From Candidatus Thorarchaeota archaeon (GTDB lineage Archaea > Asgardarchaeota > Heimdallarchaeia > Heimdallarchaeales > Heimdallarchaeaceae), in contig JBHLQZ010000009.1 in the NCBI GenBank assembly GCA_048883065.1, positions 1-23,479 of the forward strand: 23,479 nt of DNA, in the 5' to 3' direction. The number at the start of each line of letters is the position of its first letter. The stretch's first letter is position 1. A program made the position numbers and the translations under genes. The notes under the pieces are model-generated. The model ran no database searches, was not told where the DNA came from, and worked only from the letters and a program-made list of their open reading frames with translations. This document shows, piece by piece, positions 6,041 to 21,005 of the stretch.

Positions 6041-6109
6041 TTTAAATCCCCTCTACAACGGGAATATGCTTTTTTAGCTATTCCTTCTATTTTATAAAAA
6101 GTATTTGTT

Positions 6110-7216
6110 TTATTTATGCACATTTCTCTTACTCCTTATTTTTTGAAAAATTCTATAATCATCTTTATCTGTAGCAATCAACACTTCACTATTTTTTTCT
6201 AGTGGAATATCCTTTCCAATTAGTTCTTTTGCTTTAATAGAAATACCATTAACTAAAAGATCAATTTCGTAAAATTCCCCTATGCATTTTGAATTGAGTA
6301 TTGTTGCCTTTATAATATTATCATAATTGAGTACATCTTTTTCTGATATATGATATACATCCACTAATTCTGATGGTACTAGAGCAATCACTTCTTTCCC
6401 ATCTTGTAAATCAGTTTCAATTTTTAGTTTTGTTCCATTTTCATGAACCAGAAAGACATCTTTCTTTTTTCTTTCAACTTTTCCTTCAATTGTTGAAGAT
6501 TCTCCCAAAAAATTCGCAACATATAATGAAATTGGATTATTATACACTTCTTCAGGTGTTCCAATTTGTTCAATCTTCCCTTCCTTAAACACAGCAATTC
6601 TATCTGCAACACGCATTGCTTCATGAGTATCATGTGTTGCATGAATACAAGTAATTCCTAAATCCTTAACCAAATTTCTAAGCTCAATTTGAAGCATTTC
6701 TCTAATTTTGGCATCTAAAGCACGTAAAGGATCATCCATAACTAATAAATGTGCATTTGAAACTATAGCTCTAGCTAATGCAACTCGTTGTTTTTGTCCT
6801 CCACTGATTTCATCTGGATAATTCTGCTCTTTCCCTGAAATGTTAAGTAGTGTAAATAACTCTCTTGCAATCACTCTAGATTCATGCAGATTGAGATCTT
6901 TAACAATAGGTCCAAATAAAACATTTGATTCAACAGTCATCCTAGAAAATAGATTATATTCCTCAAAAACAAAACCTACATTTCTATCTTCTGCTTCGAC
7001 TTCAGATACATCTTCATCATCGAATAAAATAGCCCCACTTGAAGGTTTGAGTAATCCAGATACAAGATACATGGTCGTTGTTTTTCCTGAACCTGTTGGT
7101 CCTAATACTGCCAAATACTCCCCATCTTCTATTGTTAGATTAAGATCTTCTACACCTCTTCTACTACCATAGAATTTTGAGATATCTTTTAGTTGTACTT
7201 TAACCATTTCCATCAC
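6110..7216 (-). CDS. ABC transporter ATP-binding protein with a C-terminal TOBE/OB-like extension; Q-loop and Walker B positions are non-canonical
   Basis: 368-aa ORF. Walker A is GPTGSGKTT. The signature ISGGQ (nt 6794-6808) is canonical. Walker B is LLVMDD, with Asp162 at nt 6731-6733 where the catalytic Glu is expected. The Q-loop position reads VFEEY where VFQxY is expected. The H-loop is ATHD. The start is GTG at 7216 or ATG at 7213, and it overlaps the stop of the upstream ATPase gene. Confidence 0.9.
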   Translation of the reverse strand: MMEMVKVQLKDISKFYGSRRGVEDLNLTIEDGEYLAVLGPTGSGKTTTMYLVSGLLKPSSGAILFDDEDVSEVEAEDRNVGFVFEEYNLFSRMTVESNVLFGPIVKDLNLHESRVIARELFTLLNISGKEQNYPDEISGGQKQRVALARAIVSNAHLLVMDDPLRALDAKIREMLQIELRNLVKDLGITCIHATHDTHEAMRVADRIAVFKEGKIEQIGTPEEVYNNPISLYVANFLGESSTIEGKVERKKKDVFLVHENGTKLKIETDLQDGKEVIALVPSELVDVYHISEKDVLNYDNIIKATILNSKCIGEFYEIDLLVNGISIKAKELIGKDIPLEKNSEVLIATDKDDYRIFQKIRSKRNVHK

Positions 7217-8331
7217 ATCTCTAATGCTGAAGCTATACCACCTTTTGGATATTCATAGCAACGAGCATAATCAGGTTCAATTGTAATTATTACTTGTTCA
7301 TTTTCCTTGAAGTAAACAGGATGTTTTGCATGTATTTTTATTTCTATAATTTGTTGATTTTCTAATTTAACTCTGACTCTTCTTAAAAGTCCTAAAAATC
7401 GATCTTGAATGACATTTCCTAGAAGATAGTTATTCTCTTTATTGGATATTTTTCTCTCTGAATCATGCTTTTGGATTTGAAAGAATTCTCTTCTAACAGC
7501 TACAGCTACTCTCCTTCCTCTAGGGATTCCCATATTATGAACATCTATCACAGATTTTCCTACTCTAACTTTAGCTAATTGTTCTTCATCATCAACTATA
7601 ACTCCCTCAAGGAAATCTGATTCTCCTACGAAAAATGAACTGAAGATATGGTTTGGAGAGAACAACAAATCAGCTGGTGTTCCAAACTGAATAAGTTGAC
7701 CTTTGTTCATAACAGCTACTCTATCACTTAGAATCAGAGCTTCAGATTGATCATGTGTTACATGAATAGCTGTTAATTTTTCTCTTTTCACCAGTTCTCT
7801 AAGGAAATCTTGAAATTCTTCTCTAATCTTCTGATCCAAAGCACCTAGAGGTTCATCAAGTAATAATAGTTGAGCTTCTGCTGCGAGGACTCTTGCTAAA
7901 GCAGTTTTTTGCCAATCAGGAGCTGAAAGTGATTCAGGATATAAGTCTGCTTTATCATGAATCTGTACAGATTTTAATGCTTTTTCAACTAATTCTTCTA
8001 TTTCTTTTCTGGTTTTCCCCCTTACTGTAGGACCATACGCTGCATTTTCCCAAACTGTCATATGAGGAAATATTGCAAAATGTTGAAAGACAAATCCAAT
8101 ATTACGGTCTTGGATGGAAAGATTCTCCATAGCAACATTATCAAAAAAAATCTTACCTCTTGTTGGTAGTATAGTCCCTGCAAGGAGACGCAGAGTTGTT
8201 GTTTTTCCACACCCTGAGGGACCTATGAGTGAGATATACTCACCATCATTTATAATAAAACTAAGATCTTTTACAGCTTCGACTCTTTTATCAAAGATTT
8301 TTGTTACATGTTGGAAACGTACTTCAGTCAT
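7213..8331 (-). CDS. ABC transporter ATP-binding protein with a C-terminal TOBE/OB-like extension; the signature motif is degenerate
   Basis: 372-aa ORF. Walker A is GPSGCGKTT. The Q-loop VFQHFAIFPHMTV, Walker B LLLLDEPLGALD and H-loop VTHD are all canonical. The signature position reads LSAPDWQKTALARV (LSAPD at nt 7915-7929) where LSGGQ is expected. The ATG at 8331 overlaps the permease stop by 8 nt. Confidence 0.9.
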   Translation of the reverse strand: MTEVRFQHVTKIFDKRVEAVKDLSFIINDGEYISLIGPSGCGKTTTLRLLAGTILPTRGKIFFDNVAMENLSIQDRNIGFVFQHFAIFPHMTVWENAAYGPTVRGKTRKEIEELVEKALKSVQIHDKADLYPESLSAPDWQKTALARVLAAEAQLLLLDEPLGALDQKIREEFQDFLRELVKREKLTAIHVTHDQSEALILSDRVAVMNKGQLIQFGTPADLLFSPNHIFSSFFVGESDFLEGVIVDDEEQLAKVRVGKSVIDVHNMGIPRGRRVAVAVRREFFQIQKHDSERKISNKENNYLLGNVIQDRFLGLLRRVRVKLENQQIIEIKIHAKHPVYFKENEQVIITIEPDYARCYEYPKGGIASALEM

Positions 8332-10054
8332 TTTTATCCCTCTTTGTTATTGATCTAAGTATAATTAACATGATGAATGAAATCACAATGAGAATTGTAG
8401 CAGCAAAAGCTGCAGCTGGAAAAGTTGAAGCTTCAAAGAAATCCACTAAGAGAACAGGAATAGTTCTTTCTACACCCATACAGATTATTGTTGCTCCTGT
8501 TTCACTCATAGATCGAGTAAAAGTCATTATTGCAGCAGCTATAAGTCCATTTCTTAGGAAAGGCATTGTAACTTTTCTAAATGCCGTGAACTTAGAAGCA
8601 CCGAAAGAGACAGCTGCTTCATCATACATTGTTGGTATAGCATCAAATGATCCAATTAGAGGTCTTACACAATAGGAGTAAGTGAAGGAGATATGAGCAA
8701 TAATTATCATAGCAAATCCAGGTGAGAGTATATGCATACCATTTGAACCCCATAAGAAGAAGATACTAAAACCTAAAGCTGAGCTTGGAATTACTAAAGG
8801 AATATCAATTAATGAATCAAGAAATCCTTTCGCTTTTTTATTTCTCATTTTCGAAATTAGAAAAGCCATAGGTGTTGCTATTACTACATTGATTACAGTC
8901 ACAATTAGTGCTATTTCTAGTGACGTCACTAATGAATTAATGATGCTCGTGATTTTTTTATCAGGAGCTTGAAAAACCTGGTAAATCATACCAGCTTGTG
9001 GATCTCCTGAAAATGGAGATTTTCCCCACCATTGAAATAAGAAAATAATTACAAAAAGAGCAGGAATGAAAACTATTAGGAAGAAAATTACTAAAGATAA
9101 AGTATCTCTTGTTCTTGCAACCTTTTTAGAACTTAACTTTCTTTCAAATTTAGGAAAAACTTTATTCCATGGAAGCCCAACTTTTCGTGCAAAAAGCCTA
9201 ACCAAAGCAAGTAATAAAAGGCTAATCACAATAAGAATAAAAGCAAGAAAGGCTGTTGTAGGAATCTCTAATCCTTTCATCCAACTAACTATTACTACAG
9301 GAGCTGTTTGATAAACACCACTAACTATCAAAGTTGCTCCAGTTTCACCAAGTGATCTTGTAAAAGCAAGAACTGTACCAGCAAGCAATCCCTCTTTTAC
9401 CATTGGTAAAGAAATCATTCTTGCAATTGTAAATGGTGGTGCACCTAATGTTCTGCCAGCTTTTTCTAAATTCAAATCTAAATCCGATATAATGCCTTTT
9501 ATTGAACGAGTAACATATGGAAAAGTAAAAGCAACATGTGCAAGAATAATCAAGAGTATTCCTTGGGAGACAAATCCAACTTGAGAATTGTATAATTTAG
9601 AAATACCATTAGTTGTTCCCCAAAATAAGTAAATTGAGAATCCAAGTGCGCTAGTTGGAACTGCCATTGGCATGTCTACAAGAGTATCCAGAATATTTTT
9701 TCCTCTGAAATTGTATCTAGCCAAAATCCAAGCTATAGGAATTCCAACTATTATATCAAAGATTGTTACAATTGCAGCTATTTTTAATGAAAGCCCTATT
9801 GACCTTAACATTATTAGGAATGCTTCATTTCCTAAAATAGGATCATTAAATACTGTCTCATTAATCTCTCCCCAACTTAATAATATCTGAAATAGAAGAT
9901 AGATTATTGGTCCAAGAACTATTAAAACAAAAATTACAATGGTTAAAACTTTACCAATTGTTAACACATTATCTTTAGATAACCATTTTTCAGTTGAAAG
10001 TAATGCCTTTCTTAGTTTCACTTCAGTATCTAAATGTTGTTTTTCTGCAACCAT
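8324..10054 (-). CDS. fused two-domain ABC importer permease (two BPD_transp_1-type halves), ModB/CysTW-like
   Basis: 576-aa polytopic ORF. It has two EAA-loop regions (LEKAGRTLGAPPFTIARMISLPMVKEGLLAG and YDEAAVSFGASKFTAFRKVTMPFLRNGLIAAA). Each is followed by a motif like LAFTRSLGETGATLIVSG or MTFTRSMSETGATIICMG, which matches the LAFARSLGEFGAT motif I remember from E. coli ModB. The ATG directly abuts the stop of the binding-protein gene (TAGATG). Confidence 0.85.
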   Translation of the reverse strand: MVAEKQHLDTEVKLRKALLSTEKWLSKDNVLTIGKVLTIVIFVLIVLGPIIYLLFQILLSWGEINETVFNDPILGNEAFLIMLRSIGLSLKIAAIVTIFDIIVGIPIAWILARYNFRGKNILDTLVDMPMAVPTSALGFSIYLFWGTTNGISKLYNSQVGFVSQGILLIILAHVAFTFPYVTRSIKGIISDLDLNLEKAGRTLGAPPFTIARMISLPMVKEGLLAGTVLAFTRSLGETGATLIVSGVYQTAPVVIVSWMKGLEIPTTAFLAFILIVISLLLLALVRLFARKVGLPWNKVFPKFERKLSSKKVARTRDTLSLVIFFLIVFIPALFVIIFLFQWWGKSPFSGDPQAGMIYQVFQAPDKKITSIINSLVTSLEIALIVTVINVVIATPMAFLISKMRNKKAKGFLDSLIDIPLVIPSSALGFSIFFLWGSNGMHILSPGFAMIIIAHISFTYSYCVRPLIGSFDAIPTMYDEAAVSFGASKFTAFRKVTMPFLRNGLIAAAIMTFTRSMSETGATIICMGVERTIPVLLVDFFEASTFPAAAFAATILIVISFIMLIILRSITKRDKND

Positions 10055-11431
10055 CTATTTTTCCCTCCTTCTTCTGAGAACAGCAGTAATAACAAATAAG
10101 GTACCTATCATCAATGGTATCAAAATATATGCTTGAATTCCAACTTGCCAGTATTCTGAATCTTCAGCTTGTTCTAAAGTTGTAGCTCTTGTCTTAAGCC
10201 ACAAATCAGGGATTCTATCCAAAACTTCAGCATCAGTTGGTACATCAAATTTTGGTATGGTAATATTAAGACTGACCCCATTTTCAGATCTGAATATTTG
10301 CTGCATTTCTGCTATCATATCTGTATCATTAACAAGATTTTCATTACCCGGTCTAAAACCAAAGGGAACAGCTTGAAGTTGTCTTTCTTTACTTAAGAGA
10401 AAAGTTTCAAACTCTTGAGCTGCATATGCTTCATCTGCAGAAACCCAAGAAGCATTTAGATTTACAATTGGATGATCACTCCATAATGTTCCTTCTTCAG
10501 GATACACTGCAACTAGATTATCCCCCCATTTAGCTAGTGCTTCTCCATCTTTTGCAGTCTCAATAATAAGATTCTCATAAAGAATCATTACATTAATTTC
10601 TGAAGGTCCTAATTGCACTGCTTGTTTAGCAAGAAAACCAGTTGAAGTCCCATAAAGTACAGCTTTTGATTCAACTTTTTCAAGCCATTCTTGTATTGTT
10701 GCATTTTGCAAATCTACCATTTCAATCTGATTAGGAAGCTTTCTACTAGCTGCAGTTACTTCTAATAATACTGCCATGTAACCTGAATTGGATTCTTGAG
10801 CTGAGGTATGAGCTAATCTTAAATCCCCCTCTGCTAATGTGTATAAATCTGCCCAAGATGTGAAATTATTTAAATCTCTATAGCTTTGCCAAGAACCTAA
10901 GATTATAGGTGATGCAACTAAAGATTTCACTTGGTCTGTATCAATTATTGAATTTCCAAATTTCTTTTGCCACGCCCAATCAAAAAGAGGAACCCAAACA
11001 GAAGCTGCGGGACTCCATATTGCTGGTTTACTTTCGCCTGAAAGAATAGATAACATTGATGTTCGAGTTCCTAAAACCTCAAACTGTAATCTTACTTTTT
11101 TATCAGGATTTCTAGATGCAAACCATTCAGGAAAATCTGGAGCTATAGAATTTATCCAACCTTTTTTCTCACTAGTATAAAGAACATTCAAAACTATTTC
11201 GCCTTTCTTTCCCCCAAACTGAAGTTGCCGTACAACATCTAAAGCAACAACAGATAGAATCAAAATTAAAATAAAAACGATGGTTGGAATTTTTTTCTTC
11301 GCCAATTTTAATCCTCTTGATAGGAATGATATTGAAGTGATTTTTGATTTTAGTTTTTCATACTTATTATTAATATTATGCAAGTAACTTTCGATTTCCA
11401 TAAACAGATTCTTTATTGAATTATAACCCAT
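10055..11431 (-). CDS. ABC transporter substrate-binding protein (periplasmic-binding-protein fold, ModA/SBP_bac_11-like) with both N- and C-terminal membrane anchors
   Basis: 458-aa ORF. The N-terminal hydrophobic anchor is IPTIVFILILILSVVALDVV. The body carries motifs such as LSGESKPAIWSPAASVWVPL and SNSGYMAVLLEV, typical of type-2 solute-binding proteins of the anion/iron clan. The C-terminal helix and basic tail are YILIPLMIGTLFVITAVLRRRREK. It is the first gene of the operon. Confidence 0.7.
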   Translation of the reverse strand: MGYNSIKNLFMEIESYLHNINNKYEKLKSKITSISFLSRGLKLAKKKIPTIVFILILILSVVALDVVRQLQFGGKKGEIVLNVLYTSEKKGWINSIAPDFPEWFASRNPDKKVRLQFEVLGTRTSMLSILSGESKPAIWSPAASVWVPLFDWAWQKKFGNSIIDTDQVKSLVASPIILGSWQSYRDLNNFTSWADLYTLAEGDLRLAHTSAQESNSGYMAVLLEVTAASRKLPNQIEMVDLQNATIQEWLEKVESKAVLYGTSTGFLAKQAVQLGPSEINVMILYENLIIETAKDGEALAKWGDNLVAVYPEEGTLWSDHPIVNLNASWVSADEAYAAQEFETFLLSKERQLQAVPFGFRPGNENLVNDTDMIAEMQQIFRSENGVSLNITIPKFDVPTDAEVLDRIPDLWLKTRATTLEQAEDSEYWQVGIQAYILIPLMIGTLFVITAVLRRRREK

Positions 11432-11497
11432 AAAACGATAGGTTTATATTTGTAAGTGTTTAATAAATATTGAATAATAACCCAAAAGGTGAAAATA

Positions 11498-11842
11498 ATG
11501 TATAGATCAAGAAGATTTGGACCAGGATCAGGTTATGGTCGAGGTTTAGGTTATGGTAGGGGATGGGGAAGAGGATATGGAATAGGAGGAAGAAGATATT
11601 ATAGTCCTTATTGTGATTGGTTTCCAGACCTTCCAAGAGGTTGGTGGGCTATGCCAGAGTATCAATCAAGATTAAAGGACACAGGTTTTGTTCCACCACC
11701 AGAATCAGCAAGATGGGATCCTTATGGTGTTCCTAAAAGTCCAGAAGCAATTGATTATGAAATATCAATAGTAGAGAAACAAATTGAAAGTCTTAAAGAA
11801 GAAATCGAATACCTAAAATCATTAAGGAAACCAGCAAAATAG
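11498..11842 (+). CDS. DUF5320-like protein: Gly/Arg/Tyr-rich N-terminus plus a C-terminal coiled coil
   Basis: The ORF track starts at GTG 11489. I prefer ATG 11498 because AGGTGA lies 5 nt upstream of it. The sequence MYRSRRFGPGSGYGRGLGYGRGWGRGYGIGGRRYY, then ...LPRGWW..., then a heptad-like tail EKQIESLKEEIEYLKSLRK matches my memory of DUF5320 architecture (GRG-rich region, GW motif, C-terminal coiled coil). Confidence 0.6.
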   Translation: MYRSRRFGPGSGYGRGLGYGRGWGRGYGIGGRRYYSPYCDWFPDLPRGWWAMPEYQSRLKDTGFVPPPESARWDPYGVPKSPEAIDYEISIVEKQIESLKEEIEYLKSLRKPAK

Positions 11843-11858
11843 ATTCGTACTCAAAACC

Positions 11859-11877
11859 TTTTTAATTTCTTTTTTTT
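11859..11877 (+). terminator. oligo-T tracts (T5 and T8) after the DUF5320-like gene; possible archaeal-type terminator or attenuator
   Basis: T5 at 11859-11863 and T8 at 11870-11877 begin 17 nt after the TAG at 11840-11842. Archaeal RNA polymerase terminates at oligo-T. T-runs are common in AT-rich DNA, so this is weak evidence. Confidence 0.25.
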
Positions 11878-11900
11878 CATGATAGATATAGGTCTTCAAA

Positions 11901-12233
11901 ATGTCAGATCCAGAAGGGTATAGTTTCCAAAGAGGTGGAAGACATGGTCGGGGTAGAGGTCGGAGATATCATAGAGGGATAGGAAGACCACCTGTTTCTT
12001 ATCCTATAGACATAAACCGGAGGATCACTGAAGATCAAATTGCAATTGAATTGACTAGTTTTGAATTACAAATATTACAACTCTCTGATTTAGAAGGATT
12101 AACACAACAAGAAATCGCAGAGAAATTAAATATATCTCAAACATCTGTCTGGAGATATCTGAAATCAATTCGATTAAAATTAGCAGAAGCAATAAGTCAA
12201 CATAATCAGATTAATATTAAAATCATTGATTAG
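11901..12233 (+). CDS. DUF134-like HTH protein (sigma-70 region-4-like), atypical paralogue with an RG-rich N-terminus
   Basis: 110-aa ORF. The HTH core LTSFELQILQLSDLEGLTQQEIAEKLNISQTSVWRYLKSIRLKLAEAI fits the DUF134/UPF0251 pattern (L..dE.EalRL.D.egl.qeeaAe.mgvSr.T..r.l..AR.K.A.AL). The N-terminus is RGGRHGRGRGRRYHRGIGRPP in place of the usual Cys/FKP.G.P motif. Confidence 0.65.
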   Translation: MSDPEGYSFQRGGRHGRGRGRRYHRGIGRPPVSYPIDINRRITEDQIAIELTSFELQILQLSDLEGLTQQEIAEKLNISQTSVWRYLKSIRLKLAEAISQHNQINIKIID

Positions 12234-12284
12234 TATAAAGTGATATTTCTATATACTAATAATGTCCTATTCTTTTTAATAACT

Positions 12285-12302
12285 TATGAATAATTATTCA
12301 TA
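12285..12302. promoter_or_regulatory. 18-bp perfect palindrome TATGAATAATTATTCATA, candidate operator upstream of the canonical DUF134 gene
   Basis: I checked base by base: 12285-12293 (tatgaataa) is the exact reverse complement of 12294-12302 (ttattcata). It lies 39 nt upstream of ATG 12341 and immediately downstream of a TATA-like CTTTTTAATA (12272-12281). Confidence 0.4.
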
Positions 12303-12340
12303 CCTAAACATTTATTTAAGTAAAGAATAATTTGATTTTG

Positions 12341-12658
12341 ATGGTTCAAAAACGTAAATTAGAACGAAAATGCATTGATTATGAGAGTAATGTTTACAAA
12401 CCTATTGGAATCCCCATGAAGGATCTAAAGATTCAAAATTTAACAAAAGAAGAGGTTACAGCAATATATTATGCAGATTATATAGGGCTTAAGCAGAATG
12501 AATCTGCTGAGAAAATGGGAATATCTCAACCCTCTTTTAGTCGTGAGCTCAATATGGCTCACACTAAGATAGCATGTGCATTCTTTCATGGTTTTGCTAT
12601 ACAATTTGGATCTGGGCCATCTGAAAATTCTGATGAAAAAGAAAACGAAGTGAAATAA
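12341..12658 (+). CDS. DUF134 (UPF0251) family HTH protein, canonical paralogue
   Basis: The ORF track starts at TTG 12332. ATG 12341 is more likely (MVQKRKLERKCIDYESNVYKPIGIP...). The canonical N-terminal K-C-x-motif and YKPIGIP are present, followed by LTKEEVTAIYYADYIGLKQNESAEKMGISQPSFSRELNMAHTKIACAFFHGFAIQF. The stop overlaps the next ATG (TAATG at 12656-12660). Confidence 0.8.
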   Translation: MVQKRKLERKCIDYESNVYKPIGIPMKDLKIQNLTKEEVTAIYYADYIGLKQNESAEKMGISQPSFSRELNMAHTKIACAFFHGFAIQFGSGPSENSDEKENEVK

Positions 12659-12987
12659 TGAAAATTGCAATACCAATAATAGAAAAAAATGAAACAAGTC
12701 AGATGTCAGATAGATTTGGTAGATCTTCTTATTATCTGATTTATGATAGCGAAAGTTCAGAAATAGAAATAATTGATAATCCCGCAGTACAAGCTAGAGG
12801 AGGAGCGGGTATTCAAGCAGTTCAATTTCTAATTTCTCAAGATGTAAAAGCAGTAATAGCACCAGAAGTTGGTCCTAATGCATTCAAAGTTCTAAGAGGT
12901 TCAAATACTAGAATCTACAAAGGGATTAAAACCTCAGCTAAAGAACTAATTGAAAAATGGAAAAATAATGAATTAGATGAAATTTAG
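12658..12987 (+). CDS. NifX/NifB-C-terminal-like small protein (Nitro_FeMo-Co domain), Cys-free paralogue
   Basis: 109-aa ORF. MKIAIPIIEKNETSQMSDRFGRSSYYLIYDSESSEIEIIDNP...GAGIQAVQFLISQDVKAVIAPEVGPNAFKVLRGSNTRIY fits the MkIAvp......v..hFGra..f.iyd.......vi.n...........a..l...gv.vvi....G..a...L...gI.v pattern. It contains no cysteine. Confidence 0.85.
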   Translation: MKIAIPIIEKNETSQMSDRFGRSSYYLIYDSESSEIEIIDNPAVQARGGAGIQAVQFLISQDVKAVIAPEVGPNAFKVLRGSNTRIYKGIKTSAKELIEKWKNNELDEI

Positions 12988-12995
12988 GTGATGAA

Positions 12996-13343
12996 ATGAA
13001 ATATGCAATACCCTCACTTGGAGATAAAGGATTAGAAGATGAATTAGGTTATCATTTTGGTAGATCACCATTCTTTACAATATGGGATGATGAAACTAAT
13101 GAAATTGAAGTTATAGAAAATAGGAGTGATCATTTTGGAGGAAAAGGTCTTCCTGCAGAATTTTTAAAAGAGCACTGTAATGGTCTCATTTGTGGAGGAA
13201 TTGGATCTAGAGCAATATCTCTGTGTGCTCAACTAGGTTTAAGAGTTTTCGTTGGAGCAGAAGGAAAGATCAGTAAAGTTATTTCTGATTTTAAAGAAGG
13301 CAAATTACGAGAAGCAACCTCTGGTGATGGTTGTAAACATTAG
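12996..13343 (+). CDS. NifX/NifB-C-terminal-like small protein (Nitro_FeMo-Co domain), Cys-containing paralogue
   Basis: 115-aa ORF with AGGTGA 4 nt upstream of the ATG. The sequence is MKYAIPSLGDKGLEDELGYHFGRSPFFTIWDDETNEIEVIENRSDHFGG...LKEHCNGLICGGIGSRAISLCAQLGLRVFVG. It has four Cys, including a C-terminal GDGCKH. Confidence 0.85.
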   Translation: MKYAIPSLGDKGLEDELGYHFGRSPFFTIWDDETNEIEVIENRSDHFGGKGLPAEFLKEHCNGLICGGIGSRAISLCAQLGLRVFVGAEGKISKVISDFKEGKLREATSGDGCKH

Positions 13344-13356
13344 ATTAGTGACTGGA

Positions 13357-14193
13357 ATGGTTCAGATAGCCGTAGTTTCAGGGAAAGGTGGAACAGGTAA
13401 AACTTTGGTTGCAACGAGCTTAGCCTTATCGATTAACAATGTTCAACTCTTAGATGCAGATGTAGAAGAACCCAATAGTGCTTTGTTTCTATGTTATCGA
13501 GTTCAACCTATTGATAAAGCAGAGATTCCTGTCCCTGTTATAGATAAGGAAATATGTACTCACTGTGGAAAATGTAGTGATAGTTGTGAATATAATGCAC
13601 TCGCAAACCTACCTGGGGAAGTTCTTCTTTTCGAAAAAATATGTCATGGGTGTGGAGTATGTTCGGAAGTGTGTCCTGTTAATGCTATAACTGAAAGATA
13701 TAGACCAATTGGTACAATTTACTCAGGAAGAGAACAGAACCTTCTCTTTAACTATGGTGAACTTATTGTTGGTGAAGAGTTAGCTACACCAGTAATAACA
13801 AAATTAAAAGAGTTTGTTAAAGAAGATAGAGATTTTGTCATTTTTGATTCACCTCCTGGTTCTTCTTGCTCTATGGTTGAAACAGTGATTGATACTGATT
13901 TTGTTTTGTTGATAGGAGAACCCACACCATTTGGTCTTTCTGACATGAAAATTGTCGTGGAAACTCTTAGACAATTACATAAAAAATTTGGTGTAATAAT
14001 AAACAAGGATGGAATGGGAAATGAGGAAATGGTGGAATATTGTGAAAAAGAACAAATTGCCATTTTAATGAAAATACCTTTTGATTTGGAAATTGCAAGG
14101 CAATACTCTTTAGGTAAAACTTTGGTACAATCTTTTCCTAAATGGAAAAACGATTTTACACAACTTGCTCTAAAAATCAAGGAGATGGTATAA
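13357..14193 (+). CDS. MinD/ParA-class P-loop ATPase with an inserted 2x[4Fe-4S] ferredoxin module (COG1149-type)
   Basis: The ORF track begins at 13252, but that stretch overlaps the preceding gene. The in-frame ATG at 13357 gives MVQIAVVSGKGGTGKT (deviant Walker A KGGxGKT); ATG 13327 is an alternative. Cluster motifs are CTHCGKCSDSCEYNAL and CHGCGVCSEVCPVNAI. A Walker B-like FVIFDSPPG is present. Confidence 0.9.
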   Translation: MVQIAVVSGKGGTGKTLVATSLALSINNVQLLDADVEEPNSALFLCYRVQPIDKAEIPVPVIDKEICTHCGKCSDSCEYNALANLPGEVLLFEKICHGCGVCSEVCPVNAITERYRPIGTIYSGREQNLLFNYGELIVGEELATPVITKLKEFVKEDRDFVIFDSPPGSSCSMVETVIDTDFVLLIGEPTPFGLSDMKIVVETLRQLHKKFGVIINKDGMGNEEMVEYCEKEQIAILMKIPFDLEIARQYSLGKTLVQSFPKWKNDFTQLALKIKEMV

Positions 14194-14194
14194 T

Positions 14195-15097
14195 ATGGAA
14201 AAAAAGAGCAAGATAAAACAATTAACTGTAATTTCAGGAAAAGGAGGTACAGGCAAATCATCAATTATAGCTTCTTTAGCATATATTTTGAAAGAGAAAG
14301 TAATTCTTGCTGATGCAGATGTAGATGCAGCTGACTTGTATTTAATTTTTACACCTAAGGATTCATCTTCTCATGAATATTATGGTTTGAAAAAAGCTGA
14401 AATAGATCTTAATGTATGTACAAAATGTAATATATGCAGAGATTCTTGTAGATTTGATGCTATAGATCCTGATTTCTTTGTGCAACCATTCAAATGTGAA
14501 GGATGTAGCTTATGTTACCATGTATGCCCTGAATCTGCTGTAATGATGAAAGACCATGTTTCAGGTCATTATTTTATTTCTGATACTAGAATTGGAAAAA
14601 TGGTACATGCCAAACTTAAACCAGGCGAAGAGAGCTCCGGATTGCTTGTAGCAGAAGTAAGAAAAAAAGCTAATGAAGTTGCTAAGGAACTCAACAAAGA
14701 TCTTGTCCTAATTGATGGTTCTCCTGGAATAGGCTGTCCAGTAATTAGCTCAATTACAGGATCAGATTTAGCATTGGTTGTAACTGAACCAACAATTTCT
14801 GGAAAACACGACTTAGAGCGAGTCTTGAAACTTTTGGAGCAATTTCGAATAGGGAGTTATGTTATTGTTAACAAAACAGATATTAATTTAGAAATCACTC
14901 AAGAGATTGAAGAAATCTGTAAAGAAAAAACCCCAGTAATTGCAAATATCCCTCATAATCACATCTTTACAACTGCTATGATTGATCAAAAAACTGTAAT
15001 TGAAATGGAATCAAATACTAAGGAAGAAAAAGAAATACAAGAAACACTCTTCAAAATTGCAAAAACTATAGAAGAAAAATTACAAATAAAAAACTAG
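14195..15097 (+). CDS. MinD/ParA-class P-loop ATPase with an inserted 2x[4Fe-4S] ferredoxin module (COG1149-type), second paralogue
   Basis: 300-aa ORF starting 1 nt after the previous stop. The deviant Walker A is VISGKGGTGKSS. Cluster motifs are CTKCNICRDSCRFDAI and CEGCSLCYHVCPESAV. A Walker B-like LVLIDGSPGIG is present. Confidence 0.9.
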   Translation: MEKKSKIKQLTVISGKGGTGKSSIIASLAYILKEKVILADADVDAADLYLIFTPKDSSSHEYYGLKKAEIDLNVCTKCNICRDSCRFDAIDPDFFVQPFKCEGCSLCYHVCPESAVMMKDHVSGHYFISDTRIGKMVHAKLKPGEESSGLLVAEVRKKANEVAKELNKDLVLIDGSPGIGCPVISSITGSDLALVVTEPTISGKHDLERVLKLLEQFRIGSYVIVNKTDINLEITQEIEEICKEKTPVIANIPHNHIFTTAMIDQKTVIEMESNTKEEKEIQETLFKIAKTIEEKLQIKN

Positions 15098-15103
15098 TTT
15101 TTT
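15098..15103 (+). terminator. T6 tract immediately after the stop of the second MinD-ferredoxin gene
   Basis: tagTTTTTTc, with the stop at 15095-15097 and T6 at 15098-15103. It is followed by a 64-nt spacer before the MBL gene. Confidence 0.25.
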
Positions 15104-15167
15104 CATACGTTGATGTATTTTGGGTAAATTTAAAGAATAGCTACATTTAGTTTTAGAAGGATGATGC

Positions 15168-16025
15168 ATGAAGGTTAAAATTACAACTTTATATGATTCT
15201 CAATTTTTCAAATGGAGAAACTTTGGTGCATTTAATGGAGTATCTTTTCACATTTCAATAAATAAAGAACAGATAATTTCTGATTTAGGCTTGATAAGTT
15301 GGCGTTTAATTCGGAATATGAAGAATCTCAATGTAAATCCAGATGAGATTGATAAGGTTTTTCTAACTCATGGTCATATGGATCATGTTAGAGGTCTGAT
15401 CGGTCTCATTAGAGCTAGAACTATTTCAACTAAACTACCCGTATTTACTCATCCTGATGCATCAATACAAAGATATTCTTTTATTAAAAACAGAAAAATG
15501 TGGAATGCTGGTTTTCCTATATTTGAACCCGAAATAGAGGAAAAAATACAGTTTATATTTAATAAAAAGTCTATTCAAATTGCTCCTAATCTTTTCACTA
15601 CAGGAGAAATCTCTCTTGAGGAAAGAACCAATGTCCAGAATCTTTCTAGACATTATAAATGTAAAATAAATGATACATGGGGATTTGATTCAGTTATTGA
15701 TGATCAATCTTTAGTACTTCAGACTTCTGAAGGTCTTGTATTAATCACTGGTTGTTGTCATTCTGGATTGCTGAATACATGTAACAAAGCTAAGGAGCTG
15801 TTTAATGACGATATTCATGCTATAATTGGTGGAGTGCATATGGTTTTCGCCAATGAGGAGAAAGTTGAACAAGTTATTAATAACATTAAGCGAGAGCTCA
15901 GAAATCCGATATTATATCTTAATCATAGCACTGGAACTAAAGCAATTAGGATGATGAAGAAAGAATTTGGGGAGGAGAAAGTTAGAAATTGTTCCGTAGG
16001 TACAAAAATAAAATTCGATTTTTAG
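15168..16025 (+). CDS. metallo-beta-lactamase-fold protein (COG1237-like)
   Basis: 285-aa ORF. The HxHxDH motif is LTHGHMDHVRGL. The later motifs ITGCCHSGLLN and AIIGGVHM resemble the GCsHsGi.N / viGGfHl motifs I remember for the COG1237 MBL family. AAGGATGA lies upstream of the ATG. Confidence 0.7.
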   Translation: MKVKITTLYDSQFFKWRNFGAFNGVSFHISINKEQIISDLGLISWRLIRNMKNLNVNPDEIDKVFLTHGHMDHVRGLIGLIRARTISTKLPVFTHPDASIQRYSFIKNRKMWNAGFPIFEPEIEEKIQFIFNKKSIQIAPNLFTTGEISLEERTNVQNLSRHYKCKINDTWGFDSVIDDQSLVLQTSEGLVLITGCCHSGLLNTCNKAKELFNDDIHAIIGGVHMVFANEEKVEQVINNIKRELRNPILYLNHSTGTKAIRMMKKEFGEEKVRNCSVGTKIKFDF

Positions 16026-16042: not shown

Positions 16043-16711
16043 CTATTTTCCTACTTCTTGAAGAATAGCAGGAATTAGGTTTGGAAAATCTTCGTTTTCA
16101 TGTAATCCTGCATTTGGATCATCTGTAGCAATCACATTAAGTATAGCTACATCTGCACCATTGAAATATGCTGATCTTACATTTTGTGGTTCCAAACCCC
16201 CAGCAACAGAAATAAATGTATCATACTTTGAACGAACTTTTGAAATATCTTTGTAGCGTATAATACTCTTTACATCAGCTTCTTCATCTCTTCCTTTATG
16301 AATAACAACGAAATTAGGTCTATTTCTAAGAGGGAGGAGTCTTTTTAGTGGGTCAGTGACTCCCAACATATCTACCATAGAGTATATCCCATATCTAGCA
16401 CAATTAGCATTGAATAAATCTATAGTTATAGTTGGAGCTGAACCCATTACTGTAACTGCGTTAGCACCAGATTGACTAGCAAAAAGGATCTCTCTGACTG
16501 CGCCATCAGTTACTTTAAGATCAGCAACCACCATACCTTTCCACATTCTTCTTATCAATCTAATACCTGCAACTCCAGTTAGTTTTAGGTAGGGAGTCCC
16601 TGCTTCGATTATTATTCTAGGATCATAAGGAATCTGTGACAAAACTCGTCTTACTTGAGAAGCATCTCGATTGAATGCAATTTGTATATAGCGAGTATTG
16701 GGGTCGAGCAA
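16043..16711 (-). CDS. OMP-decarboxylase-suprafamily barrel, 3-hexulose-6-phosphate synthase-like
   Basis: 222-aa ORF. The motifs IQIAF, IIIEAGTP, VVADLKVTDG (the D-x-K-x-x-D signature), VVIHKGRDEE and ISVAGGL align with my memory of HPS/KGPDC sequences (LQVALD, IIEvGTP, fADmKtmDaG, HaGlD, vAGG). Confidence 0.6.
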   Translation of the reverse strand: MLDPNTRYIQIAFNRDASQVRRVLSQIPYDPRIIIEAGTPYLKLTGVAGIRLIRRMWKGMVVADLKVTDGAVREILFASQSGANAVTVMGSAPTITIDLFNANCARYGIYSMVDMLGVTDPLKRLLPLRNRPNFVVIHKGRDEEADVKSIIRYKDISKVRSKYDTFISVAGGLEPQNVRSAYFNGADVAILNVIATDDPNAGLHENEDFPNLIPAILQEVGK

Positions 16712-16722
16712 GTCTTTCCCTC

Positions 16723-17505
16723 TTATTTCTTAGTTTTCTTGACTACTTCTGATAATCCTTCAGAAAGATCATTTGGCATAAAAATAACAATCTTTTCACT
16801 TGGATCTTGGGCTATGTCTCTAATTGTTTGTAATGTTCTTAAAGTTAAAGCCCCTCTCTCTTCTGAGAGTTTTCTAGCTGCATCAGCTAGGTTTTTAGCA
16901 GCAATAAATTCTCCTTCAGATTGAATAATAACAGCTCGCTTTTCCCTTTCAGCTTCAGCTTGTTTAGCGAAAGCTCTTTTCATTTCCGCTGGCAATTCAA
17001 TTTCTTGAATTTTGATACTTTGAATGTCAATTCCCCATTCATTTGTTTCTTTGTCAACAATAGATCGAATGTCATTAGCAATCTGATCACGTTCAATTAA
17101 GACTTGATCTAGCTCCATAGTTCCCATTGTATCTCGTAAAGCTGCTTGAGTATATTGCCTCACAGCGTAGACATAATTCTCAATCTTGATAACTGCATCT
17201 GCCGGTCTCTCAACTTTAAAGTAGACAACAGTATTTGCTAATACAGGGATATTATCTTTTGTCATAACTTCTTGTCTGGGTATATCTTGAGTAATGATTC
17301 TCAAATCTACTTTCTTTGCTGATTCTATAATTGGTGTAACATAAACCAAACCAGGTCCTATGGTTCTCTTATAGTGTCCTAATCTAAAAACAACTAATCG
17401 TTCATATTCCATAGTTATTCTAATTCCTGCTAAAAGCAGAATAACAATAATTCCACCTATTACAGAACATACTGCTATTATTATTGTACTTACAAATGGT
17501 TCCAT
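16723..17505 (-). CDS. SPFH/band-7 (stomatin/prohibitin-like) membrane protein
   Basis: 260-aa ORF with an N-terminal TM helix (IIIAVCSVIGGIIVILLLAGI). Classic stomatin motifs follow: YERLVVFRLGHY, GPGLVYVTPIIE, DLRI, VMTKDNIPV, YFKVERP, ALRDTMG, and a C-terminal AEAEREKRAVIIQSEGE coiled region. Confidence 0.9.
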   Translation of the reverse strand: MEPFVSTIIIAVCSVIGGIIVILLLAGIRITMEYERLVVFRLGHYKRTIGPGLVYVTPIIESAKKVDLRIITQDIPRQEVMTKDNIPVLANTVVYFKVERPADAVIKIENYVYAVRQYTQAALRDTMGTMELDQVLIERDQIANDIRSIVDKETNEWGIDIQSIKIQEIELPAEMKRAFAKQAEAEREKRAVIIQSEGEFIAAKNLADAARKLSEERGALTLRTLQTIRDIAQDPSEKIVIFMPNDLSEGLSEVVKKTKK

Positions 17506-17614
17506 TTTTTCACCTAATTTTTAATTCTGGCTAAATGAATATTGATAGAAAGTATTAATTAAAGCTATCCCATTGTCTAAATATAGAAGAAATTAAAACT
17601 ATAGGTGTAATCTA

Positions 17615-17962
17615 TTGAATATCATAGAGAAATATCGTTTTGGTAAGATTGTTGTTAATGGAAAATCATTTTCTAAAGATTTAATTATCTTCCCAGATGA
17701 AATAAAATCAAAATGGTGGAGAAAACAGGGTCATTCTCTACATTTAGATGATTTGCTAATTCTTGATGAGAAAAAAATAGATGTTTTAGTTGTAGGTACA
17801 GGTGCATTTGGTAGAGTTAATGTTCCTGCTGATGTCATTCAGAAACTCAATGAAAGAGATATAGTAGTTATTGCTAAAAAAACCTCGGAAGCGGTAGAAG
17901 AATATAATAAACTAGCAAAAGAAAACAAGATTGTAGCTGCTGCACTCCATTTAAATTGCTAA
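17615..17962 (+). CDS. Mth938-like domain protein (DUF498/NDUFAF3-type fold family)
   Basis: 115-aa ORF with a TTG start. The sequence I..YRFGKIVVNGKSFSKDLIIFPDEI.SKWWRKQGHSLHLDDL......IDVLVVGTGAFGRVNVPADVIQKLNERDIVVI fits the family pattern (fG.i.i.G..y..DviV.p......W......H.l...dl.......pevLviGtG..g.l.v.......l...gi.v). Confidence 0.7.
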   Translation: MNIIEKYRFGKIVVNGKSFSKDLIIFPDEIKSKWWRKQGHSLHLDDLLILDEKKIDVLVVGTGAFGRVNVPADVIQKLNERDIVVIAKKTSEAVEEYNKLAKENKIVAAALHLNC

Positions 17963-18021
17963 AAATATTGTTTTAATCCTCAGAGTAGATTTTATAAATA
18001 TCTAATCTTTTGTACTAAACC

Positions 18022-18897
18022 ATGTCAGATTACGTTATTAAGCAATATCAAGAAGAATTTATTGAAGATCAATTTAAGGTAGGATCAGAAGTAGTTAAAG
18101 ATTGGAAGTTTTTTGGACAAACATCTGTTGAAGAACTTAAACAGTCCTACTCCCAAGAGGATTTTGACCCTGAAACAAGATTATACTGCTTTAAAGATGA
18201 GAAACTTGTAGGATTTTTAACAGCTGCAGTAAATGAAACAGAAGAAGAAAGATTTGGATTTCTAAGATTACCTTTTGTTTTACCAGAACATAAGGATGCA
18301 GAAGAATTACTGTTTAATGAGATAGTTGAGGTTTTTAAGAAAAAAGGAATTAAGAAGATAAGAGCTCAAGCTTCAAATCTTTGGGGGAATTCATTAGAAT
18401 TAGTCAAAAAATGGAATTTCGATAAGAAGGATGAGAACTTTTATGTTTACATAGCAGATTTAAAAGAGGTTGCAGTGGATAAAAACGACAAAATAGAAAT
18501 CCGATCTTTTGATTATGAAAAAGATGTAGAACCTATGGTAGAGATCTTTAAGGAAAAATATGGTTACACTGAAGAAGCAGCTAAACAGAATTTTGAAACC
18601 ATAAAGAATTTTGATAGAGTGATTGCACACTTAATTGTTCAAAAAGATGAGAATATAGTTGGGAGAGCTTTAGCTTATCTTACTGATGACCCCAAACTTG
18701 CGATTAATGGTTTCATGTTTGGAGATGATGATGTAAAGAAAGCTATGCTTTCAGAAATTATTGAAAAAAGTAAAGAAAAAGAAGTTGAAAAATTACAAAT
18801 GTTCTTCAACCTTCCAAACAAGCAACTTATCCCTGCATATGAGAAACTTGGTTTTAAGTTAGATGGAAAAGGAATTAATTTTGAGAAAGAAATCTAA
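18022..18897 (+). CDS. putative GNAT-family N-acetyltransferase (two-lobed)
   Basis: 291-aa ORF. GNAT-like segments include LVGFLTAAV...LRLPFVLPEHKDAEELLFNEIVEVFKKKGIKKIRAQASN and the C-terminal LIPAYEKLGFKL. No strict Q/RxxGxG/A motif was identified, so the assignment is tentative. Confidence 0.4.
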   Translation: MSDYVIKQYQEEFIEDQFKVGSEVVKDWKFFGQTSVEELKQSYSQEDFDPETRLYCFKDEKLVGFLTAAVNETEEERFGFLRLPFVLPEHKDAEELLFNEIVEVFKKKGIKKIRAQASNLWGNSLELVKKWNFDKKDENFYVYIADLKEVAVDKNDKIEIRSFDYEKDVEPMVEIFKEKYGYTEEAAKQNFETIKNFDRVIAHLIVQKDENIVGRALAYLTDDPKLAINGFMFGDDDVKKAMLSEIIEKSKEKEVEKLQMFFNLPNKQLIPAYEKLGFKLDGKGINFEKEI

Positions 18898-20377: not shown

Positions 20378-21001
20378 TTACTCCACCTTCTTCATCCATT
20401 TCAGACCCTCTTTGAAAGCTTTTTTATTGACTTGTTTCAAGAGGATATTTCTACCTAGGTATTCCAAAACATACTCTTCAGCTTTATTTGTTGGTATCTC
20501 TAGTTCTGGGAATGTTGTCAAAATAGAGAAAACAGCAACATTAACAGGTTTTAGTTTAAATTTTACACTTGCTTCAAAGCCTAATGCGTCAAAAATATAA
20601 GTTTCGGAAGAATATTTTATTATCTCTCGATCAATATCTTCAGCATCTGGAAACATTTCTAAACCTAAATCAACTGTTGTTCTTATATCATATTTATTAG
20701 AAACTAGTACTTTGGGTTTTGTTTCTCTAGCTAAATAGAGATAACGTAAGGTCTCAAGTTTTTCTAATCCTATAATAATATCTACATCTTTAGCAGCAAA
20801 CAGAGGATTATCAGCTTCATTTATTCGAATGAAGGATTGTACCGATCCTCCCCTTTGAGATAAACCATGCATCTCATTGTAACACACTTTCTTTCCTAGC
20901 ATAAAGCTTGTGTTTGCTATCAGCTTTGCTAGAGTAATAACTCCCTGACCACCTAGACCAACAATTGCAATGTTTAATGTATTATTTTGTTTATCACTCA
21001 T
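20378..21001 (-). CDS. iorB: indolepyruvate:ferredoxin oxidoreductase beta subunit
   Basis: 207-aa ORF. The N-terminal IAIVGLGGQGVITLAKLI motif is typical of the OFOR gamma/IorB domain. Its size and its position 4 nt downstream of the alpha subunit gene match iorAB. Confidence 0.8.
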   Translation of the reverse strand: MSDKQNNTLNIAIVGLGGQGVITLAKLIANTSFMLGKKVCYNEMHGLSQRGGSVQSFIRINEADNPLFAAKDVDIIIGLEKLETLRYLYLARETKPKVLVSNKYDIRTTVDLGLEMFPDAEDIDREIIKYSSETYIFDALGFEASVKFKLKPVNVAVFSILTTFPELEIPTNKAEEYVLEYLGRNILLKQVNKKAFKEGLKWMKKVE

Positions 21002-21005
21002 TTGC

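Follow-up and report, generated by a model that had tools for sequence, protein, structure and literature searches.

A metallocluster-linked gene cluster of an Asgard archaeon as a very probable form of the orp (orange protein complex) system

The stretch of DNA analysed here, referred to as the window, covers 23,479 nucleotides (nt) of contig JBHLQZ010000009.1 (assembly GCA_048883065.1) from a Candidatus Thorarchaeota archaeon that the GTDB lineage places in the Heimdallarchaeaceae. Between positions 11489 and 16025 it carries eight plus-strand genes, g1 to g8, which a preliminary description had put forward as a candidate, so far uncharacterised metallocluster-handling system. The heteromeric module linked to metalloclusters is real, yet it is a known one: in all likelihood the genes constitute an orp-type system, an Asgard version of the orp (orange protein complex) gene cluster already described in the literature (Pardoux 2019, PMC6345978; Fievet 2021, PMC8359166). 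Its most likely function is that of an ATP-gated carrier complex for Fe-S clusters or other metalloclusters; to this explanation as a whole, orp identity and proposed mechanism taken together, we give a probability of about 0.55. The earlier proposal that the genes act as a functional unit tied to metalloclusters is supported, more strongly than could be known when it was made.

The features of the cluster are the following.

g1: 11489-11842, plus strand; small, divergent DUF5320 protein, RG-rich at its N-terminus and with a coiled coil at its C-terminus; no Pfam or NCBIfam match at E <= 0.01
g2: 11901-12233, plus strand; DUF134 protein (PF02001, 8e-10, 39.6 bits) with an RG-rich N-terminus and matches to helix-turn-helix (HTH) domains of the sigma-70 region 4 type
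Palindrome TGAATAATTATTCA: 12287-12300, strand not applicable; perfect, 14 bp; candidate operator of the core operon
TATA-like box TTTATTTA: 12311-12318, plus strand; found by sequence inspection; putative promoter element
g3: open reading frame (ORF) 12332-12658, probable start 12341, plus strand; DUF134 HTH protein (PF02001, 1.7e-11, 45.0 bits)
g4: 12658-12987, plus strand; Nitro_FeMo-Co protein (PF02579, 5.5e-22, 78.3 bits) of the orange-protein/MTH1175/TM1290 subtype
g5: 12996-13343, plus strand; Nitro_FeMo-Co protein (PF02579, 1.1e-18, 67.8 bits) of the PH0822/TM1816-like subtype
g6: 13357-14193, plus strand; U-type SIMIBI (MinD/ParA/NifH-class) ATPase with CbiA/ParA and Fer4 Pfam matches and a 2x[4Fe-4S] insert
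g7: 14195-15097, plus strand; D-type SIMIBI ATPase with CbiA/ParA and Fer4 Pfam matches and a 2x[4Fe-4S] insert
A6-CTAG-T6 palindrome: 15088-15103, plus strand; spans the g7 stop codon; putative terminator
g8: 15168-16025, plus strand; metallo-beta-lactamase-fold hydrolase, COG1237-like (PF00753, 6.2e-8, 33.2 bits)

Pfam gathering thresholds are 27 bits for DUF5320 (PF17253), 27 for DUF134 (PF02001), 26.3 for Nitro_FeMo-Co (PF02579) and 22.7 for Lactamase_B. All eight ORFs of the preliminary description lie where it had placed them, and the core junctions are exactly those it gave, namely a TAATG overlap at 12658 followed by gaps of 8, 13 and 1 nt. Likewise, g6 and g7 each contain the deviant Walker A motif SGKGGTGK[TS] and two CxxCxxCxxxC motifs (four in all), and the T6 tract said to precede a COG1237-like protein directly follows the g7 stop codon, g8 being a Lactamase_B member. 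A scan of window ORFs of at least 90 amino acids (aa) for nitrogenase and radical-SAM genes found no nifH, nifD, nifK, nifE or nifN and no radical-SAM NifB, in agreement with the view that this is not a nitrogenase cluster.

Relationship to the bacterial orp system

For the orp cluster, PMC6345978 cites Fievet 2011. The ORP complex of Desulfovibrio vulgaris Hildenborough comprises Orp3, Orp4, Orp5, Orp8 and Orp9 (PMC6345978). Orp3 and Orp4 are similar ATPases with two [4Fe-4S] ferredoxin motifs each; Orp8 is homologous to orange protein, whose Mo-Cu sulfide cluster is held non-covalently, the cluster of ORP homologues being [S2MoS2CuS2MoS2]; and in Orp9, or MrpORP, a Mrp/NBP35 domain is joined to a NifX-like one (PMC6345978). 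In purifications of His-tagged Orp3, Orp4 and Orp8 "systematically" come along, the three making up an Fe-S complex, and MrpORP can reload the apo Orp3-Orp4-Orp8 complex with clusters in vitro (PMC6345978). The genes are organised in two operons, orp5-orp4-orp3 and orp7-orp8-orp9, which OrpR, a sigma-54 activator, induces at very low redox potential only; that the system arose in archaea was proposed earlier (PMC8359166).

The first pointer to ORP came from the NCBIfam MrpORP equivalog NF041136 (cut-off 450 bits), which gave partial hits of 30-47 bits to g4-g7. ATPases of the two kinds found in the window are named here after their position, U (upstream) for g6 and D (downstream) for g7, and the loci collected from other genomes are designated by L numbers. 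Six Mrp-NifX fusion proteins encoded beside U/D pairs score 501-557 bits against the MrpORP cut-off. Those of three Desulfobacterales loci (L013, L017 and L024) score 501-518 bits, and the U and D ATPases next to them are orthologous to g6 and g7. Locus L024 additionally encodes an OrpR-like PAS-domain protein with Cys52, Cys61 and Cys65, the positions of the conserved OrpR cysteines (PMC8359166). The same ATPase orthologues thus adjoin true MrpORP and OrpR genes in Desulfobacterota, and it is through these loci, not through D. vulgaris sequences, that the link is made. They were used as orp references because a Maridesulfovibrio locus (L064), tried as a canonical orp locus, was rejected: it contains genes for a DUF5320 protein, a U ATPase, a D ATPase, a CGGC-domain protein and a zinc-ribbon protein (L064:6786-9516), but neither an orange protein nor a Mrp gene lies within 8 kb of them. 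Further features of the reference loci lie at L013:3951-4622, L024:6724-6927 and L017:4530-4994. L013 and L024 encode a protein of 67-68 aa with six Cys, an RG-rich N-terminus and a CxCPxCG...CPKCG motif, possibly Orp5, and an IscU-like gene (GxCGDxM) separates MrpORP from the ATPase pair in L013 and L017. From the D. vulgaris operon order orp5-orp4-orp3 we infer that Orp4 would correspond to the U type (g6) and Orp3 to the D type (g7).

The window cluster shares with D. vulgaris orp the adjacent, diverged MinD/ParA-class ATPases with two [4Fe-4S] ferredoxin motifs each, an orange-protein-type Nitro_FeMo-Co protein (g4), a small RG-rich protein encoded upstream and a restriction to anaerobes. 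The differences are also several. The window genes form one co-directional operon instead of two divergent ones and include two DUF134 genes and a second NifX paralogue of a Cys/His type; the small protein g1 is a divergent DUF5320 with one Cys, not of the Cys-rich Orp5 type; and a palindromic candidate operator with a TATA-like box stands in place of OrpR sites. No MrpORP or Mrp gene was found among the window ORFs, NF041136 giving only sub-threshold partial hits, and no OrpR-type enhancer-binding protein is encoded in the window. Lack of sigma-54/OrpR control is expected since the host is an archaeon. The absence of Mrp, the two DUF134 genes, the divergent DUF5320 and the candidate operator are lineage-specific features. 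Specific to the present analysis are the nature of g1 as a divergent DUF5320, an invariant switch-II Cys in both ATPases and the conserved TGAATAATTATTCA palindrome upstream of a TATA-like box.

Recognition of the orp identity keeps the Asgard locus from being reported as a new system and ties it to the biochemistry of the Orp3-Orp4-Orp8 complex and to cluster loading by MrpORP. Among conserved gene clusters of strict anaerobes that lack a defined cellular function, the ORP module is one of the most widespread.

The ATPase pair and the NifX-like proteins

Eighty loci around g7 homologues in reference genomes, together with earlier loci and the window, made up 84 non-redundant sources, which were annotated with hidden Markov models (HMMs) seeded from the window proteins. 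The loci having been picked by similarity to g7, all frequencies given below are conditional on the presence of a D-type ATPase. Because the Mrp seed HMM drifted to all P-loop ATPases, ATPase classes were set by ferredoxin-motif count and Walker A signature. The Orp5-like seed gave matches in 33 loci, probably including low-complexity RG-rich DUF5320 proteins, and this number was not used.

A tight tandem ATPase pair was found in 67 of the 84 sources, a 4-nt overlap being the commonest junction; the other 17 comprise fusions into one gene (L041, L073), pairs with another gene in between, and copies that are fragmented or cut off at contig ends. The pair is seen in methanogens, Asgard archaea, Bathyarchaeia, Desulfobacterota, Chloroflexota, PVC bacteria and many candidate phyla. 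U precedes D in all 67 loci. For every one of the 134 ATPases in these loci the top 20 cross-locus matches belong to the same positional class, and identity to the best cross-locus match is about 62% as against about 32% between the two copies of a locus (29-31% for g6 and g7). Positional-class matching and the excess of cross-locus over within-locus identity identify this "paralogue pair" as two ancient orthologue groups. The preliminary description had spoken of three paralogue pairs; the presence of two diverged copies stands, but they are not local duplications, the ATPases and the NifX-like genes representing ancient distinct groups or subtypes.

The conserved gene order on which the preliminary description had staked its proposal was found in relatives: two Nitro_FeMo-Co genes are followed by two ferredoxin-insert ATPase genes in a Heimdall metagenome-assembled genome (MAG), in Methanolobus and in a WOR-1 bacterium, and the positional classes of the pair hold in 134 of 134 ATPases. 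In the Heimdall MAG (L001) the order from g1 to g7 is the same as in the window. The closest database relatives of g7 are labelled Heimdallarchaeaceae, and the closest relative of the window locus is L085, at 84% identity.

The existence of two fixed-order ancient groups, the 4-nt overlap junctions and the abundance of single-gene fusions indicate that g6 and g7 very probably form an obligate heterodimer. Together with the co-purification of Orp3, Orp4 and Orp8 (PMC6345978), these data uphold the heterodimeric ATPase module postulated previously. The heterodimeric carrier module that was postulated beside it would join g4 and g5, members of two different subtypes, and is a weaker case than was claimed. 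U-then-D fusions occur as single genes at L041:5033-6913 and L073:153-1997, and at least 120 database proteins (P0146-P0265), all of about 600-835 aa, have the same arrangement; those named among the matches listed come from Kiritimatiellia, Verrucomicrobiota, Lentisphaeria, Victivallales and Krumholzibacteria. For one U-D fusion the AlphaFold model reaches a predicted template-modelling score (pTM) of 0.84, with low confidence only in the ferredoxin inserts, which the model leaves without clusters. The fusions and this model lend indirect support to a physical complex of the Orp3-Orp4-Orp8 kind. Such natural fusions would be convenient targets for structural work on the heterodimer.

Both ATPase classes retain intact Walker A, switch I and switch II motifs. 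The CxxCxxCxxxC motifs of g6 occupy residues 67-77 and 96-106. Nine Cys are conserved in each class, invariant in 17 of the 18 cases and 99% conserved in one. Eight of the nine lie in the ferredoxin motifs; the remaining one is part of a switch-II sequence, D-x-x-P-G-x-x-C(-P), 7 residues past the Walker-B Asp (Cys171 in g6, within DFVIF-D-SPPGSS-C; Cys181 in g7, within DLVLI-D-GSPGIG-C).

The AlphaFold2 model of g7 has a mean confidence (pLDDT) of 93.8. Its nearest solved folds are MinD, FleN and FlhG, to which the P-loop core is the best structural match, followed by BchL and NifH, with template-modelling (TM) scores of about 0.53-0.60; the search of solved folds with this model returned no structure of the ferredoxin-insert ATPase subfamily. 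In contrast to MinD, FleN and FlhG, the window ATPases have an insertion of about 75 residues (a beta-hairpin and the ferredoxin domain) after switch I, an extra switch-II Cys and no Min partners. With NifH, BchL/ChlL and CfbC they share the SIMIBI ATP-sandwich dimer fold, the deviant Walker A and, as predicted, an Fe-S centre on the face beside switch I and II. Those proteins are homodimers with a single bridging cluster, whereas g6 and g7 would be an obligate heterodimer with its clusters in 2x[4Fe-4S] ferredoxin inserts; in addition, no equivalent of NifH Cys97 is conserved in either class, there is no NifDK-like partner, and scores remain below the Pfam and NCBIfam thresholds (Fer4_NifH, 16-22 bits versus 25; nifH TIGR01287, 24 versus 394). 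The Mrp/NBP35/ApbC proteins belong to the same ATPase superclass and act in Fe-S trafficking, Nbp35-Cfd1 offering a precedent for a heterodimer. Unlike these, g6 and g7 have ferredoxin inserts instead of the CXXC bridging motif and score far below the ApbC and MrpORP cut-offs.

The two NifX-like proteins are clear members of PF02579, the family of NifX, NafY, the NifB C-terminal domain, MTH1175, TM1290, PH0822 and TM1816; their genomic context, unlike that of NifX, NafY and NifB, is not nitrogenase. g4 is nearest to TM1290 and MTH1175 (matches in the PDB: 1rdu, 7.5e-20; 1eo1, 8e-18; the D. gigas ORP 2wfb, 1.6e-7). A protein of the g4 subtype from the orp locus L024, sharing its motifs, matches 2wfb at 3.2e-19. 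g5 is nearest to PH0822 and TM1816, with 2yx6 (2.2e-14) as its best PDB match and no ORP structure among its PDB matches. A motif rule for assigning NifX subtypes across all loci proved too strict, leaving most proteins as "other", and an archaeal subtype alignment was used instead. In this alignment the g4 type is marked by RFGR, GGAGxQ and GPNA and has no conserved Cys. The g5 type is marked by HFGR, EHxGG and C-[GS]-G-[LI]-G; Cys66 is conserved in it, and its C-terminus is either Cys-x-x-His or a His-rich tail, g5 itself having Cys66 and a C-terminal Cys113-x-His. To judge from the sequences, obvious covalent cluster ligands are offered by g5 only.

The cluster-carrier model and competing explanations

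The neighbourhood survey suggested by the preliminary description bears out the gene association: a stand-alone NifX-like gene lies within 5 kb of the ATPase pair in 61 of the 67 loci, two or more in 54, and a DUF134 gene in 28. Within the same distance, a Mrp-like ATPase gene is present in 28 loci and an IscU-like scaffold gene in 21.

In the model that we favour, the g6-g7 pair would act as an ATP-sandwich heterodimer, with a 2x[4Fe-4S] ferredoxin insert and a single switch-II Cys at the dimer face coming from either subunit. By binding and hydrolysing nucleotide, the heterodimer would gate electron flow through the inserts, cluster hand-over, or both. The NifX-like proteins g4 and g5 would hold an Fe-S-based, possibly heterometallic, cluster and pass it to client proteins, with g1 as an accessory partner. 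The g3-g7 transcript would be controlled via the palindrome at 12287-12300 by g3, perhaps g2, or an unlinked metal-dependent repressor. The carrier or insertion mechanism proper, an ATP-gated heterodimeric Fe-S ATPase with NifX-family carriers that hold, reduce or hand over a cluster, is given somewhat less than an even chance.

A number of points weigh against the carrier model. Archaeal members are known here from their genes, and the biochemistry, which they would share by analogy, comes from D. vulgaris. The survey frequencies carry the condition stated above. No Mrp/NBP35, IscU-like or Orp5-type Cys-rich gene was found in the 23.5-kb window, so the cluster donor is not encoded locally. 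Since g4 contains no Cys, any cluster must bind it non-covalently. The placing of the switch-II Cys at the dimer interface derives from motif register. The corresponding NifH stretch, DFVFY-D-VLGDVV-C132, has its Cys in the same register as g6 and g7, exactly 7 residues past the Walker-B Asp; this match is a lead, not a test. The equivalence with Cys132 is read from register because an hhalign comparison of the D-class profile with NifH aligned only the C-terminal 56 columns and the global alignment was broken by the ferredoxin insert. Finally, the role of ORP is annotated only as "putatively involved in cell division" (PMC6345978).

The strongest alternative, although a rather improbable one, is an ATP-driven low-potential reductase, similar to the nitrogenase Fe protein or "archerases", that would send electrons via the inserts to a cofactor on g4/g5 or to an unlinked client and carry no cargo. 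The presence of BchL and NifH among the nearest solved folds of g7, the switch-II Cys in the Cys132 register, the intact Walker A, switch I and switch II of both subunits and the two ferredoxin clusters per subunit would all suit such an enzyme, as would the expression of the D. vulgaris orp genes only at very low redox potential (PMC8359166). However, the NifH Cys97 equivalent is not conserved, the Fer4_NifH match is below threshold and no locus contains a NifDK- or BchNB-like catalytic partner; moreover, the frequent linkage to Mrp and IscU-like genes favours cluster handling.

We attach little credence to a second possibility, the handling of Mo or W thiometalates, in which Mo/W-S(-Cu) species would be bound by the NifX-like proteins, as by the D. 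gigas orange protein, to be stored, detoxified or supplied to Mo/W enzymes, and the ATPases would drive loading or release. The assignment of g4 to the orange-protein subtype and the binding of the Mo-Cu cluster mentioned above by ORP homologues (PMC6345978) are in line with this idea. So is an ABC importer encoded divergently from the cluster (window 5372-11431, minus strand: an SBP_bac_11 binding protein, a fused double permease, two ATPase genes and PhoU_div (DUF47)), the permease of which scores best against ModB/WtpB/CysT models and exceeds the ModB cut-off; moreover, the Heimdall locus L001 has a tungsten-type AFOR gene at a distance of about 3 kb. Yet the permease score is the sum of two fused domains, with sulfate-type models nearly as high, and the importer adjoins the cluster in 1 of the 84 sources; its position is occupied by a flavodoxin gene in the closest relative, L085, and by unrelated permeases in L086-88. 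Adjacency to a Mo/W transporter, being absent from close relatives, was rejected as a functional clue. The genes that recur near the ATPase pair serve Fe-S biogenesis (Mrp, IscU-like) and are not Mo/W genes.

Very doubtful is a MinD-like function in positioning or cell division, with the ATPases as spatial regulators at the membrane or pole and the Fe-S inserts as redox sensors: MinD, FleN and FlhG head the list of structural neighbours, hydrophobic moments are high in the C-terminal helices of g6 and g7, and the putative cell-division role of ORP goes with a reported C-terminal amphipathic helix in Orp3/Orp4 and a polar MrpORP (PMC6345978; PMC4672049), but the MinD model TIGR01969 gives g6 and g7 54.6 and 62.3 bits, far below its threshold of 201.75, neither MinC nor MinE turned up in the window or among the loci with Pfam-assigned genes, linkage to NifX-like genes is near-universal and to Mrp/IscU frequent, and the g7 model places the C-terminal helix within the fold with high confidence.

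If the Asgard orp cluster does encode an ATP-driven machine for cluster assembly or insertion, it would fill a gap in the maturation of complex metalloenzymes in anaerobes, archaea especially. Handles for testing are at hand in the two ATPase groups and their fusions, the Cys in the NifH Cys132 register, the two NifX subtypes, the IscU/Mrp linkage and the candidate operator. A wider proposal, unlikely as it stands, is that the obligate U/D heterodimer represents a third, very widespread nitrogenase-Fe-protein-like lineage, its ferredoxin inserts and pair of switch-II cysteines delivering low-potential electrons to, or assembling, a complex Fe-S or heterometal cluster on NifX-family carriers. 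This would be a general, nitrogenase-independent cofactor pathway of anaerobes, retained in Asgard archaea and, in several uncultivated archaeal lineages, controlled at a TGAAT-N4-ATTCA operator by DUF134 or a metal-dependent repressor.

Transcription units, candidate operator and accessory genes

T tracts follow g1 (T5 and T8), g2 (T5) and, directly at its stop codon, g7 (T6); no T tract of six or more occurs inside g3-g7. This placement suggests g1, g2, g3-g7 and g8 as transcription units. Thus, g1 would probably be transcribed on its own, and the T6 of the A6-CTAG-T6 palindrome is the likely end of the core transcript.

The start of g3 is most likely the ATG at 12341, not the TTG at 12332, because the ATGGTTCA start is kept in six loci. 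The TATA-like box TTTATTTA lies about 23 nt upstream of this start and about 10 nt downstream of the palindrome, and related loci have aligned TATA-like blocks. The identical 14-mer TGAATAATTATTCA is found at the equivalent position in L001, L085, L086 and L088, and a degenerate copy in L087; the intergenic DNA around it has diverged among the Asgard loci with the 14-mer retained. No other occurrence was found in 88 loci (about 1 Mb). That the palindrome is a statistical outlier in this AT-rich window was considered and rejected, 71 of 100 shuffles yielding at least one match at three mismatches or fewer. Its support therefore comes from positional conservation across loci.

Related elements occur elsewhere. 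In a Thorarchaeota locus (L052:6167-6204), tandem variants TGAATCAGTATTCA and TGAATCATTATTCA immediately precede the NifX-like gene, and no DUF134 gene intervenes. A metagenome scan with a 16-mer gave at least 120 matches; among those listed, the palindrome lies directly upstream of a NifX-like gene in L147, L169 and L182, the operon proteins of L182 being only about 35% identical to the others. In L169 (431-1298) a DtxR-family regulator gene (Fe_dep_repress and Fe_dep_repr_C) is divergent from a Nitro_FeMo-Co gene, and a ATGAATAATTATTCAT palindrome lies 8 nt from the start codon of the regulator. The arrangement hints at metal-dependent control of NifX-like genes; on account of it, the protein binding the candidate operator could be either DUF134 or a metal-dependent repressor. 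Of the earlier suggestion that the cluster is governed by its own DUF134 regulators, dedicated regulation fits well with a conserved palindrome at the core promoter, whereas DUF134 as the binder is a candidate only. A DUF134 gene is located directly 5' of the NifX-like genes in every Asgard locus examined. The additional upstream copy, g2, is present in L001 and L085 and absent from L086-L088; it is limited to the closest relatives.

The small protein g1, previously called DUF5320-like, scores 13.6 bits (E = 0.16) against PF17253 and so misses the threshold of 27 in a direct comparison. Homology was established through intermediate sequences. A word-indexed search recovered 25 g1 homologues, the named ones from Heimdall- or Lokiarchaeota MAGs, and a g1-family profile found only 23 matches among 1.84e9 representatives. 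The family has a single invariant Cys, in a C-x3-P-x2-P-R-G-W-W motif. The weaker profile matches are full-length and share the motif C-x3-P-x2-P-R-x-W-W and the C-terminal coiled coil; nine of ten tested fit DUF5320, five of them above threshold. An hhalign comparison of the g1 family with DUF5320 gave 97% probability, over the coiled coil only. As the intermediate sequences match DUF5320 and share motif and coiled coil with g1, the sequence evidence identifies g1 as a divergent DUF5320. DUF5320 genes recur in clusters with the ATPase pair, for example in Maridesulfovibrio (L064) and WOR-1 (L004). Moreover, in "Rosetta-stone" fusions (L046:6069-6623, L054:884-1363) a Nitro_FeMo-Co domain is followed by a Gly/Met-rich linker and a coiled-coil tail, both DUF5320-like, and a DUF5320-like tail is likewise joined to a 2x[4Fe-4S] ferredoxin.

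The metallo-beta-lactamase gene g8 encodes an HGHMDH motif (HxHxDH), and its best solved match is 2p4z, a [quoted passage not shown] (5.6e-23), with TM1679 at 3.5e-20. The preliminary description had counted it in the cluster. A g8-like gene is indeed present in 17 of the 67 loci at no more than 5 kb from the ATPase pair, but in L085 a peptidase gene on the opposite strand stands between it and the ATPases, and L001 and L086-88 have an alpha/beta hydrolase in its stead; g8 is therefore regarded as a loose, separately transcribed accessory. Beyond it, window 16043-18897 is syntenic with L085:6713-9570 (OMPdecase/HUMPS-family, SPFH/Band_7, DUF498 and GNAT genes). An indolepyruvate-type 2-oxoacid:ferredoxin oxidoreductase (IorA/IorB-like) is encoded at 20378-22916 on the minus strand.

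Two minus-strand ORFs overlap the cluster, one of 170 aa over g6/g7 (13752-14264) and one of 85 aa over g3/g4 (12440-12697). They are low-complexity, Phe/Ser/Leu-rich translations of the strand opposite conserved genes and almost certainly not genes. Near the other end of the window (519-1262, plus strand), this Asgard archaeon encodes a protein of 247 aa that has a PARP-type zinc finger at its C-terminus (zf-PARP, 3e-13).

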